Numbered from the stretch's first letter, positions 20,840 to 24,034 are shown. The stretch is 64,000 nt of DNA from an uncultured Methanosarcinales archaeon (GCA_964354685.1 CAYHAM010000006.1:9523-73522); one strand, 5' to 3'. The notes: generated from the letters alone by a model not told the origin. Program-made: numbers and translations.

Positions 20840-22579
20840 TCACTTCAACTCAGCACCACACTTCTCACAATACCTTCTCTTAGCAGGGTTCTTGTGCTTA
20901 CAAGCTGGACACTTCTTCTTCCTTCTCTTGATTAGCAGGAATATTATTATTAGTATTATAAACAACACAATTATAACTGGCGCTAGTGTATAAATCAAAT
21001 ACTCAATACCTCTATACCCCACAACAAACCTTCCCCTCTTTACCTTTACCAAGTTTTGTTCCCTTTCCCCATAATATGCAACCACCAAAACCTCTTCATT
21101 ATCCTCATAATCCTCTTCCTCAAGATCAACCTTTACTCTTATCTTCTTCTTCTCTCCCTTTTTTATAAACACAACCTTGTCAGAGCCAAAACTAAACCTC
21201 TCTCCTGCAATAACAATATCAACAAGCTCCAAATCAACATAAGTATCAACCTCTCCAATGTTCTTGATCTCTATGATAAACTCTTTTCTAACCTTATCAT
21301 ACACAACACTAACAATCTCTATCTCTGAGTTATCCATCACTTCTGTTAAGTTCACAATCATGGATATATCAATAATATATTCCAATGAGCGCTTTGACTC
21401 CCCATAAATAACATAAATATCAGCAGTTATATCCCCAAACATTGGCTCAACATCATAAACCAGTGTTCTATATTCAAGCCCATCCATAAATACAGGCTCA
21501 ACCTCTCCAACAGTTTGTATTTCTCCATCACCCCATGAGAGCCTGTACGTGCCTAAGAAATATGTTGCTAAATCAACATTGTTCCTAAATGTTACCTCAA
21601 GCTGGTTTGTTAGCTGATTGTAGAAAACACTAACAATCTCAAGGTTTAGTCTATAAGTAGGCAAGTAAAACAAGTCAAGTCCTTCAACAGGGCTTATTGC
21701 ATCCCCAGGAACCCTTGCACTCCTAGCAAACTTCACAAAAACACTGATCCCAGCCTGCCTTTTTATTGTTGTTGCTGTACCAACATACTGGTTGCCTATT
21801 AGCACACCAACCTCAATCCCAGCCTCTTTTATATACTCCCTAACCTGGTCAGGAACATTTGCACTACCAATGAAAATTACTGGCTCAGCCCCAGACATTA
21901 CCTCTGTCTCAATAAACTCACCATTTGTCAAAATAACCTGCTTTGTTGGTTTTAGTTCCATATATTTCTTCACAATCTCAATGTTGTTGTCAAACCTGTC
22001 TCCATCCTTGTTGATTATTTCAGGATTATAAATACTAAGGGCATCCTTCACCTCTCTGTTAACATATCCAAATAAGATCACTTTGTCAGGGTCTCTTGCT
22101 GCCAAAAAAGTAGCCACCTCTCCTATGTTGTTTCTATCAGCAAAAAGAACATAGCTCTTTGAAACCTGTGCATAAGGAGCAACAGAAATCGCATTGTACC
22201 CATAAGAATCATCAATCACAATAAAGTTCTTTATATCAGGAAGCCTTCTTGCAAGCTCAAGATTCACATTATCAAAAGTTAGCTCCTCTGCATCATAACC
22301 CCTTCCAGTAAGAACATTCTCATAACCAGTTACAAAAGGATACCTTGATGACGTTATCACCTGAAGAGATGCTCCTGCAGATAAGCCCTCTGTTAATATT
22401 GTTGAATGTCTTTGGCTAACCAAGAAATTGCTCGGGAGTCCTTGGAGGTTTGCATACTGAATAACTGAATACACATCCCTCCAATCCTCTGAGTTAGAAA
22501 TAATTTGATCTATTGCTGAAACAAAGAAGCTGTTCAATATCAGCAACAAAAAAGTAAACACCACTACCCTTTTTTTCAT
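20840..22579 (-). CDS. Membrane protein (579 aa) with cell-wall-binding-2 (CWB2)-like repeats, Ig-like domains, C-terminal TM helix and zinc ribbon
   Basis: YNAISVAPYA...YVLF, KVILFG and GDRFDNNIEIVKKY resemble CWB2 repeats. TM helix is followed by CPACKHKNPAKRRYCEKCG. Confidence 0.75.
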   Translation of the reverse strand: MKKRVVVFTFLLLILNSFFVSAIDQIISNSEDWRDVYSVIQYANLQGLPSNFLVSQRHSTILTEGLSAGASLQVITSSRYPFVTGYENVLTGRGYDAEELTFDNVNLELARRLPDIKNFIVIDDSYGYNAISVAPYAQVSKSYVLFADRNNIGEVATFLAARDPDKVILFGYVNREVKDALSIYNPEIINKDGDRFDNNIEIVKKYMELKPTKQVILTNGEFIETEVMSGAEPVIFIGSANVPDQVREYIKEAGIEVGVLIGNQYVGTATTIKRQAGISVFVKFARSARVPGDAISPVEGLDLFYLPTYRLNLEIVSVFYNQLTNQLEVTFRNNVDLATYFLGTYRLSWGDGEIQTVGEVEPVFMDGLEYRTLVYDVEPMFGDITADIYVIYGESKRSLEYIIDISMIVNLTEVMDNSEIEIVSVVYDKVRKEFIIEIKNIGEVDTYVDLELVDIVIAGERFSFGSDKVVFIKKGEKKKIRVKVDLEEEDYEDNEEVLVVAYYGEREQNLVKVKRGRFVVGYRGIEYLIYTLAPVIIVLFIILIIIFLLIKRRKKKCPACKHKNPAKRRYCEKCGAELK

Positions 22580-22620
22580 TTAAAAAACAACCCCCTCTAA
22601 CCATTGAAATATATCTGATT

Positions 22621-22638
22621 TATATATAAATCTATCGA
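22621..22638 (-). promoter_or_regulatory. BRE+TATA promoter for the CWB2-like/csaA unit
   Basis: Minus strand TCGATAGATTTATATATA, about 40 bp upstream of ATG 22579. Confidence 0.65.
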
Positions 22639-22669
22639 AAATCTTTTATTTTCGGAGATTTATATGCTT

Positions 22670-22872
22670 AGAAATTCCAAAAGAATTTCTGGCACACTAA
22701 AAAATCCTATGGATTTTTGGTGTCCCAGAAATCTGCAAAGCAGATTTCTAAGGATGTTCAAGAACCAATGGTTCTTGACACTCAGAAATTCAAAGAATTT
22801 CTTTTGTATAAATCTTTTGAAAACCTCTGGTTTTCAAGAGATTTACCTTCAGAAAATGCTTTGCATTTCTGA
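22670..22872. repeat. Intergenic array of seven back-to-back short inverted repeats (hairpins)
   Basis: AGAAATTC-CAAAA-GAATTTCT; AAAAATCC-TAT-GGATTTTT; AGAAATCTGC-AAA-GCAGATTTCT; TCAAGAACC-AAT-GGTTCTTGA; AGAAATTC-AAA-GAATTTCT; TAAATCTTTTGAAAACC-TCT-GGTTTTCAAGAGATTTA; TCAGAAAATGC-TTT-GCATTTCTGA. Confidence 0.92.
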
Positions 22873-22903
22873 CATATAGAAAAAGCACTGGTTTATACCT
22901 AGT

Positions 22904-23245
22904 TTATTCTACCTTTGGATCAAAGCTTGTAACCTCATTTTTTTTGCCATCTACCACAACCCTCGTCTTTGCCTGTTTTGTCTCATTATCAACTGTTGAA
23001 TAAACCATAACAATGAAATTCCAATCATCACCATACTTATAACTTTCAACAACATCCATGTTGTATTGTGGAATGCCGACTGTTCTGTTTTCCTCTGTTG
23101 TATAAAACTTTACCCTCTCTTGCAAAAAGAGCAGAGCTGTTTGCTCTGCCTCATCTTCAGATATGCTCTGACATCCGCAAACAAGTATAGAAAATAACAG
23201 GATAAAACTCAAAAACACGGTATATAAAAAGGTTCTTGTTTCCAT
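22904..23245 (-). CDS. Small secreted/lipoprotein-like protein (113 aa), possibly PepSY-like
   Basis: Hydrophobic leader ending VCGC; ISEDEAEQTAL helix and VVVDG..NEV hairpin. Confidence 0.75.
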   Translation of the reverse strand: METRTFLYTVFLSFILLFSILVCGCQSISEDEAEQTALLFLQERVKFYTTEENRTVGIPQYNMDVVESYKYGDDWNFIVMVYSTVDNETKQAKTRVVVDGKKNEVTSFDPKVE

Positions 23246-23269
23246 TCTCCATTATCGAAAGTTTTAGAC

Positions 23270-24034
23270 TTAAGACAATTCAACATAAAAATAATAATCT
23301 GTATGTGTTGTAGCAGGGCTACCATTCTCTGCTATTAACATCTGGAAATCATAGGTTGAATTTGCAGCATCATTTTTATAGCCATCAACATTATTCTCTA
23401 TCTTAGTTGCATATACTAAATTAGCACTTCCATCATAGAGCAAAACCTCCTCAAACCATTCTGTGGAGCTTTGGGTACTATCATTAATCCAGGTTTGTAT
23501 TGAATAGTTACAGGTATCCTGTATTATCTGAGTAGGCCCAGAATAAAATCCCCAATGGTCATTTGCATCATCATCAAAAGTATCATTTATTGCATCTCCT
23601 GGTGTGTTAGTTAAATTGTGGTGCATCTCTGTCATTTCATCAGAAACATGAGTTGAGTTTGCGCACCTCACGCCGCTCCAATTAATCATGCTTGAAGTTC
23701 TAGTAGCATAAACCTCTCCAGCAATTGTTGATATGTTCCATTCATATATTGAATAGTTGCTTGCATCCTCCAAAACATATGAACCAGTAACATTTCCAAC
23801 ATAGGCCTTCCAATGGGAATCTGCTTGCCTAGCATTGAGGATCAATGTTGCAATCACCCCACCAGTTATGCTAATATTATTCTCTAAAGTTGGGTTACCA
23901 GACGCAACTGATGTCTCGTTTCTAACATAAGTGATTACTGGTCCTGAGGGTACTGCTGCCCACACAACTCCAATTAAAATCACGCTAATAATTATGCAGG
24001 TAAAAATTAAAAATGATATATCTCTTACTCTCAT
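23270..24034 (-). CDS. Secreted ~250-aa subunit-like protein, subtype A (A1)
   Basis: Signal peptide, AVPSGP, WKAYVGNVTG, LEDASNYSIYEW, YDFQMLIAENG, terminal YYFYVELS. Confidence 0.92.
   Translation of the reverse strand: MRVRDISFLIFTCIIISVILIGVVWAAVPSGPVITYVRNETSVASGNPTLENNISITGGVIATLILNARQADSHWKAYVGNVTGSYVLEDASNYSIYEWNISTIAGEVYATRTSSMINWSGVRCANSTHVSDEMTEMHHNLTNTPGDAINDTFDDDANDHWGFYSGPTQIIQDTCNYSIQTWINDSTQSSTEWFEEVLLYDGSANLVYATKIENNVDGYKNDAANSTYDFQMLIAENGSPATTHTDYYFYVELS

Follow-up and report, generated by a model that had tools for sequence, protein, structure and literature searches.

What is the row of hairpins that fills a single gene spacer in a small archaeal genome, and how did it come to be there? 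The locus lies within the window, by which we mean the whole 64,000-nt stretch of DNA that was analyzed, and the original prediction had described seven stacked hairpins at positions 22670-22872, reading them as a REP/BIME-like element, a structured RNA or processing site, or a cruciform array bound by protein. The host genome measures 1.28 Mb (36% GC, 13 contigs), is rated 100% complete and bears an archaeal SSU rRNA; the host is a Woesearchaeota-type (DPANN) archaeon.

All seven hairpins are present in the sequence as described, with 3-nt loops in six of the seven and four stems that start with AGAAAT or AGAAAA. The interval holds for these seven, but its left edge has to be moved, as an eighth hairpin sits outside it; the array thus comprises eight adjoining hairpins, named M0 to M7, at 22624-22872. 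It fills most of the 324-nt spacer that separates the stop of a 113-aa ORF (22904) from the start of a 579-aa ORF (22579), both on the minus strand. It is not a CRISPR, as had been stated, and contains no direct-repeat family, only inverted repeats that differ from each other in sequence.

M0 (22624-22665), which appears in both the inverted-repeat listing and the folds, has an outer stem, ATATAAATCT/AGATTTATAT, built from two TATA-box-like motifs, and an inner stem, CGAAAAT/ATTTTCG. It is followed by M1 (22670-22690; AGAAATTC caaaa GAATTTCT) and by the only two modules that were assigned a strand, both plus: M2 (22694-22723), a 13-bp stem with a T.G wobble, a bulged A and the loop TAT, and M3 (22724-22753), with the loop AAA. 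M4 (22755-22780) reads (TGT)TCAAGAACC aat GGTTCTTGA(ACA), with the loop AAT; it is repeated at C1:154782, C5:34140 and C3:135379 of the host genome and is also encountered after the core unit described below in a related genome, G117. M5 (22784-22802; AGAAATTC aaa GAATTTCT) has the loop AAA, and M6 (22809-22845), a 17-bp stem with the loop TCT that is likewise recovered in the folds (TAAATCTTTTGAAAACC tct GGTTTTCAAGAGATTTA), is a second TATAAATCT-type module, like M0. The last module, M7 (22849-22872; TCAGAAA(A)TGC ttt GCATTTCTGA, loop TTT), is similar to the second hairpin of the core unit; M2 directly precedes it in a close relative.

RNA folding of the plus strand yielded -88.2 kcal/mol, versus -40.3 +/- 4.1 kcal/mol in shuffles (z = -11.7), and similar deviations were obtained for the minus strand (z = -9.5) and with DNA parameters (z = -11.8); none of 200 shuffles matched the stability of the array. 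Logan contigs of the individual runs ERR3804374 and ERR3804373 agree with the window at every base as far as 22676 and again from 22737, terminating exactly inside hairpins M1 and M3, so that the MAG assembly is the sole source of bases 22677-22736. The per-run assemblies also reproduce both array edges without difference, among them the right junction of the core unit. Palindromes of this kind interrupt de Bruijn assembly, in agreement with the many copies of the unit found at contig ends in relatives.

The downstream flanking gene (579 aa, 20840-22579, minus strand; from the ORF listing) has only a weak zinc-ribbon match in Pfam. Its orthologues in relatives display 43-57% identity, the range that also characterizes the proteins of the closest species representatives at this locus, and the relatives that carry orthologues of this flanking gene were deposited as Candidatus Woesearchaeota or Nanoarchaeota MAGs. 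The upstream flanking gene (113 aa, 22904-23245, minus strand; from the same listing) has no Pfam match, and an identical protein, together with its downstream DNA, is present in a Logan contig. Its stop codon lies 32 nt from M7 and is followed on the minus strand by a T5 run (22885-22881), with a T6 run further in. The array is located upstream of a TATA-like box of the 579-aa gene, the palindrome GATTTATATATAAATC (22617-22632), in which a TATA-box-like motif (TTTATATA) can be read on both strands. On the minus strand this palindrome lies ~43-45 nt before the ATG, with a ribosome-binding-like GAGGGGG motif in between, and it is a candidate promoter of the 579-aa gene. In the genome, GATTTATATA occurs 30 times and AGATTTATA/TATAAATCT 114 times.

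The array does not behave as a conserved 5' leader of the 579-aa gene, and this explanation was rejected: a hairpin array is absent within 650 nt upstream of the orthologous gene in eight GTDB relatives, and in the two for which ORFs were mapped, the upstream spacers measure 59 and 131 nt.

The window array is the largest hairpin cluster of the host genome, and one among many. Perfect hairpins, counted with a stem of at least 8 and a loop of 3-7, number 356 genome-wide versus 139 in shuffles, and 185 of the 356 fall in the 13% of the genome that lies outside long ORFs. Three-nucleotide loops account for 50% of intergenic hairpins versus 25% of those inside ORFs, and a 5'C..G3' closing pair is found in 93 intergenic hairpins versus 9 in ORFs. 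Intergenic hairpins are also polarized, with an A-rich 5' arm and a T-rich 3' arm (100 versus 44, p = 3e-6). A search for AGAAAT...ATTTCT hairpins, the check that had been proposed for this locus, did reveal an excess, but a modest one (16 versus 7 expected), the real signal being carried by the broader xRAAAA...TTTTYx class. About a quarter of the spacer DNA (~37.5 kb of 155.5 kb) matches another spacer, yet DPANN genomes are among the smallest and most compact cellular genomes. The array is clearly neither unique nor unconserved, since its hairpins are dispersed in the genome and its core unit is conserved across the order.

Intergenic repeats of the host are dominated by a separate family of ~57 copies with the core CTAGCGAGTTGCTAGTGCTCAACTAAAATAAAGGCAACTCGTGGTGATGC, found for example at C3:13070-13120 and in ~50 other spacers. 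This family is unrelated to the core unit of the array, and both end in TGGTG after a hairpin.

M2 and M3 are the part of the array that has relatives elsewhere, and together they form a 60-nt core unit (22694-22753) whose sense strand is the plus strand of the window; it is delineated by BLAST, by a covariance model, by its flanks and by its exact absence from other arrays. Its first hairpin (22694-22723) has an ACAC/GTGT foot, a conserved T.G wobble, a bulged base, an A5/T5 stem and a variable tip. The second (22724-22753) has a CC/GG foot, extended by a third pair between T22723 and A22754, then a 1x2 internal loop, and above it an AGAAAT/ATTTCT stem with a C-AAA-G tip.

Of 151 genomes of the order, 44 contain several BLAST matches to the core unit, at 78-88% identity. 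An alignment of 20 sequences was folded with RNAalifold, which returned the two hairpins with compensatory changes in 11 of 19 pairs, and the covariance model built from this alignment, R1, identified ~12-14 core-unit loci in the host genome. Among 201 sampled genomes, R1 had matches in 71, which cover 66 of the 170 genera of the order; single genomes reach at least 24 matches (both strands counted), many of them at contig ends. In a phylum-wide sample, 69 of 72 positive genomes came from this order, and the core unit is thus almost confined to it.

The structure was then evaluated with a hand-written fold and one copy from each of 30 genomes, where 97.9% of cells are paired and changes on both sides of a pair affect 14 of 22 pairs (84 cells). 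These 30 sequences were gathered with a model that already contains the structure, and the set gathered by BLAST gives the same pattern. None of 500 shuffles reached the pairing of the core-unit alignment, and sliding the partners by 1-3 columns lowered pairing to 32-55%. The foot of hairpin 2 illustrates the exchange of paired bases, appearing in different alignment rows as TCC/GGA, CCC/GGG, TGC/GCA, CAC/GTG or AAC/GTT, and the A5/T5 runs hardly ever change to G-C. The claim of the original prediction that stems differ in sequence while pairing is kept therefore holds for M2 and M3, across 30 genomes. The T.G wobble is retained in 21 of the 30 sequences, with the bulged base next to it, and the 1x2 internal loop is conserved as well. 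Since these irregularities are conserved, the unit has a sense strand, which corresponds to the plus strand of the window.

The flanks outside ACACT...AGGA are unrelated between genomes, which indicates that the unit is discrete. It starts with ACACT, and the preceding 4-6 nt vary in the 30 genomes, in which we found no conserved head tetranucleotide (GTAG or similar) by the hairpin, no conserved target tetranucleotide or fixed insertion target evident in the flanks, and no conserved promoter upstream. In the host genome, copies are diverged (70-90% identity). A weaker unit-like match (37 bits) at C4:48050-48129 lies inside a long ORF, and may be either an in-frame copy or the sign of a spurious ORF. 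In the aligned copy from genome G138 (L065:1456-1637), the unit ends in ...GAGGATG, and this ATG opens an ORF that encodes a typical signal peptide (MKKLIAAILLVLAVLPAALA), so that the conserved AGGATG tail can supply or abut a start codon.

The core unit is missing from otherwise comparable arrays. The nearest paralogous array, at C1:154741-154879, displays the order M0, M1, M4, an M5-like hairpin and the start of M6 at 81-91% identity, its M0 lying at C1:154837-154875, and lacks exactly the 60 nt that correspond to window positions 22694-22753. The junction reads CTGGC|ATGTTC and is ambiguous by a single base; therefore there is no target duplication. A 93-nt contig from a marine sediment metagenome (X5) joins window positions 22657-22693 to 22754-22809 with one mismatch, and thus corresponds to an array minus the 60-nt unit, with the same boundaries as in the paralogue, although at 93 nt it cannot be assigned to a locus. 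The flanking genes in X5 are only ~87% identical, so this near-identical fragment comes from a more distant genome or from another locus. In another X5 contig an M0-like hairpin is joined straight to M5. In a soil relative (X6), whose flanking genes are ~88-97% identical and in the same order, the contig that covers the spacer begins within the 579-aa gene, includes M0, M1 and M2 and continues from 22722 directly at 22849; M3-M6, 126 nt in all, are thus absent from it. M1 is found in the paralogous array as well as in contigs of both metagenomes. In genomes of the same genus (g134), which are ~70% identical and not syntenic around the element, an empty site was not found.

Larger composites are found in relatives. 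Genome G146 contains five near-identical multi-hairpin elements of ~245 nt, and G252 contains seven, of ~218 nt, with the ends TTATGCAAAAAAT...GCATTTTTATGAT. Both kinds have a unit-like double hairpin inside, sharp ends and unrelated flanks, and lack a target duplication; they represent recent amplification in these relatives. A classic MITE was rejected as an explanation, since target duplication is seen neither at the 60-nt unit, with its 1-nt ambiguity, nor at the G146 and G252 composites. In G117 the module order of the window recurs beside tRNA-gene-like sequence.

The host genome itself contains a four-hairpin element in two copies (C1:146649-146797 and C8:37130-37280), consisting of ATCACAAAAATCCGCC..GGCGTATTTTTG, the unit, and then CAGAAACGGC ttt GCCGTTTTTT AGCAT. 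Its ATCA(C/T)AAAAAT terminus reappears at the ends of elements in G252, G117 and G126.

Which enzyme could move such a unit? There is no transposase near the array, in line with the original prediction, and a search for the HUH/RAYT nuclease that had been proposed as a check came back empty, PF01797 (Y1/IS200/RAYT) being absent from the 100%-complete host genome. TnpB was not found in this genome either, where the search returned only a sub-threshold zinc-ribbon match. Y1 is present in 68 of 201 genomes of the order, and occurs in 37 of 81 genomes that carry the unit versus 37 of 130 that do not (odds ratio 2.1, p = 0.012); this association is weak and could reflect general mobile-DNA load. 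Conversely, 44 of the 81 carriers are without Y1, among them the closed genome G023, which has 11 unit matches.

Proximity between the two is rare. When 24 Y1 loci were scanned with the full model, 22 had no unit-like hairpins within 2 kb, and such hairpins were located near Y1 in 2 of the ~27 loci examined, those of G146 and G126, where they lie inside the reading frame and not at element ends. No autonomous IS or TnpA with ends matching the unit was found among the Y1 loci examined. The two Y1 genes concerned (L077:1854-2474 in G146 and L070:2473-3070 in G126) belong to genomes of two families, share 92% DNA identity with mostly third-codon-position changes, and represent one lineage. Their common N-terminal extension includes a 51-nt double hairpin (CAGAAATC..GATTTCTG GGATGC CAAAAATC..GATTTTTG), a degenerate copy that preserves the reading frame in G146 but is interrupted by a TGA in G126; it looks like an insertion into the Y1 gene rather than an element end. 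The notion that the unit is an end of an IS200/IS605 element is unsupported, as the hairpins in G126 and G146 lie in a coding extension and the neighboring ORFs are mutually unrelated and are not TnpB. A third locus, in G148, was set aside, the hairpins there being adjacent to a RelA/SpoT-like gene; a 369-aa RelA/SpoT-domain protein (L071:2082-3191) is encoded between the Y1 gene and a four-hairpin array.

We compared the array to known systems of small palindromic repeats. The literature that was searched contains no description of this hairpin family; all that it offers is a general census that noted a high density of MITEs in a Woesearchaeal genome (PMC11602168).

The closest parallel is with the REP/BIME/REPIN sequences of Enterobacteria and Pseudomonas, which are mobilized by RAYT and are also short, imperfect, extragenic palindromes that occur in tens of copies per genome and in mosaic arrays. 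Here, the 185 intergenic perfect hairpins, ~12-14 unit loci and many arrays correspond to such short, high-copy extragenic palindromes, and the arrays are mosaics of different hairpins in which whole modules are present or absent; some alternate two types (C1:238926-239086), which the window array does not. Both systems lack target duplication, have strand-specific irregularities in their hairpins and could double as transcript-end structures. The differences are that the host is archaeal (DPANN), that the mobile unit consists of two different hairpins in tandem and not of one REP or an inverted pair, that there is no GTAG/CGTC-type head, and that RAYT/Y1 is missing from the host genome and from 44 of 81 carriers. 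Moreover, the unit is conserved across a whole order, unlike REPs, which are species-specific. Of the three original readings, REP/BIME-like fits best: it stands for distribution and modular architecture and fails for the nuclease gene and the head motif; the array is an analogue of REP/BIME and not a member.

PATEs, the miniature IS200-IS605 elements of Haloquadratum walsbyi, are similarly hairpin-based, without classic terminal inverted repeats or target duplication, and Y1 is found in a third of the genomes related to our host, mildly associated with the unit. Nevertheless, as opposed to PATEs, no autonomous IS with matching ends was found for the unit, 22 of 24 Y1 loci are without unit-like hairpins within 2 kb, and no conserved target tetranucleotide is evident. 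At 60 nt, the unit would also be far shorter than the known functional pairs of left and right ends of IS200/IS605. In its behavior it is comparable to a very small element of the REP or PATE type.

Other resemblances are looser. Rickettsia palindromic elements (RPEs) likewise inhabit a small, reduced genome and can lie within ORFs without disturbing the frame, which is paralleled here by the degenerate copy in frame in the Y1 gene and by the unit of the window, exactly 20 codons in length; however, RPEs measure 100-150 bp, are bacterial and are mostly coding insertions, whereas here intergenic copies are in the majority. BOX elements of Streptococcus pneumoniae and Correia/NEMIS of Neisseria share modularity, a variable number of modules and stable folds near gene ends that can alter the expression of neighboring genes, but there is no sequence relation, and the terminal inverted repeats and TA duplication that characterize Correia elements are not seen here. 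As for the attC sites of integrons, the sequence varies while a folded single-strand structure is conserved, with unpaired bases that mark the strand; unlike attC, there are neither cassettes nor an integrase, and copies are dispersed and do not form one gene-cassette array.

We consider it probable that the array is a mosaic in the manner of BIMEs, assembled from mobile DNA that is not autonomous and depends on hairpins; this DNA is probably inactive now in this host, and maybe the array serves incidentally to stop transcription from either side. Small hairpin-forming modules of several kinds, none of them coding, would have piled up in the spacer that runs from the stop of the 113-aa gene to the promoter of the 579-aa gene. 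At least one of them, the 60-nt core (22694-22753), would be a discrete mobile unit seated in an older module string, M0-M1-M4-M5. The fold of the core is kept by selection across the order, which points to its recognition as a folded single strand. The recognizing agent would most likely be a trans-acting, structure-specific DNA enzyme that generates no target-site duplication, in the 'peel-and-paste' style of HUH/Y1 proteins, and by analogy a Y1 enzyme acting in trans would be the best candidate. As the host has neither Y1 nor TnpB and its copies have diverged to 70-90% identity, these copies are probably relics that no longer move, and the array would now change mainly by loss or gain of whole modules. 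Each module has an A-run/T-run stem, which leads to hairpins and oligo-T tracts on both strands; these should impede transcription that continues past the upstream gene into the promoter of the 579-aa gene, and a secondary terminator or insulator effect thus appears likely on the basis of sequence.

A bolder version of this model, which we put forward only tentatively, is that the unit is the minimal substrate of a structure-specific, single-strand DNA mobilization system that is restricted to Woesearchaeales and independent of Y1/RAYT. The wobble, the bulge and the internal loop would be its recognition marks. The unit would insert at the foot of other hairpins, which would make arrays its favored landing sites, and the host would have come to employ these as two-way insulators of transcription. 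Against a mobile origin speaks the identity of the unit, ~85% across families whose proteins are ~50% identical, which is high for a selfish element and could also reflect a function for the host.

Could usefulness to the host, and not selfish mobility, account for the spread of the modules? They could be bidirectional archaeal terminators or insulators, selected to part tightly packed transcription units. Archaeal RNA polymerase stops at oligo-T tracts, and the polarity of A-run 5' arms and T-run 3' arms is strongly non-random and reads alike on both strands. The A/T runs are in addition the most invariant columns of the unit, almost never flipping to G-C, and the array lies between a stop codon and a promoter-like TATA palindrome. 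The distribution of hairpins is at odds with such a role: their density per kb amounts to 0.96, 0.9 and 1.28 in convergent/tandem spacers versus 1.19 in divergent ones, where no terminator is needed. Since density is equal in divergent, convergent and tandem spacers, the hairpins are not simply terminators, and simple termination was rejected as the main explanation. The orthologous spacers of the eight relatives do without the array, proliferation in relatives is indicated by amplified copies of almost the same sequence and by others that lie at contig ends, and a degenerate copy lies in frame inside an ORF. We therefore regard termination or insulation as an unlikely origin of the modules.

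Alternatively, the 60-nt unit, or the M1-M4 string, could be a multi-copy small RNA or a protein-bound, cis-acting RNA motif that is made from the plus strand. Strong covariation, the conserved U.G wobble, the bulge and the internal loop, a consistent strand asymmetry and high sequence conservation across the order are all what a structured RNA would display, and a TATA-like motif (22659-22666, plus strand) lies ~25-30 nt upstream of the window's copy of the unit. However, the triloop hairpins with C-G closure fold equally well as DNA and as RNA. Rfam models had no hit in 21500-24000 with the cutoff relaxed to E <= 1, nor did any reach its gathering score across the entire window, and scanning for tRNA and tmRNA genes was likewise negative. 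Neither a promoter nor flanks are conserved upstream of the unit in the 30 genomes, and copies in the host genome occur in either orientation relative to neighboring genes, which argues against a strand-specific cis-RNA role; the reading as a structured RNA or processing site is also weakened by a hairpin density that is the same in divergent spacers. RNA genes, moreover, do not typically occur in dozens of copies per genome, lie at contig ends or vary by indels of whole modules, and overall we consider an RNA function to be quite improbable.

That the palindromes are binding sites of dimeric DNA-binding proteins, in double-stranded or cruciform form, and thus nucleoid, replication or recombination sites, appears very unlikely. 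The palindromes are indeed perfect, with short spacers, and clustered in arrays, and the BIMEs of E. coli bind IHF and gyrase. Nonetheless, stem tips vary while pairing is kept, with at least 6 pair combinations at several positions, as would fit if pairing, and not a fixed half-site, is what matters; a wobble and a bulge, both conserved, make the palindromes asymmetric, and no candidate protein was found.

Finally, it is scarcely credible that the array encodes a small basic protein (a 71-aa ORF in the ORF listing, 22664-22879, plus strand, open over all seven hairpins, with GGAG 7 nt before the ATG and the 60 nt of the unit in frame) or is an assembly artefact (its middle 60 nt lie outside the two independent contigs), because the paralogue's counterpart frame, read from its sequence, closes after 29 codons and the frame in X6 is disrupted by the 126-nt gap together with a single inserted base, so that the ORF, for which the chance of such an opening in any frame is ~0.04, was rejected as a gene and is probably accidental, and because both array edges are identical in per-run assemblies and the module order is repeated in G117.

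The interest of the core unit lies in a combination of features: a fold kept by compensatory changes throughout an order, exact turnover of a 60-nt block without duplication, and persistence in genomes without a known hairpin-specific transposase, which suggest either a new mobilization enzyme or an unrecognized role of folded DNA or RNA in the host. Such repeats also fragment metagenome assemblies, can sit in frame in ORFs and create spurious ORFs, and recognizing them therefore improves the annotation of a poorly known lineage.

Elsewhere in the window, at 34341-60742, two giant ORFs of 3202 and 5598 aa occupy the minus strand, and proteins with Ig-like domains are encoded upstream of them; the region is a surface-protein cluster that has no relation to the array.
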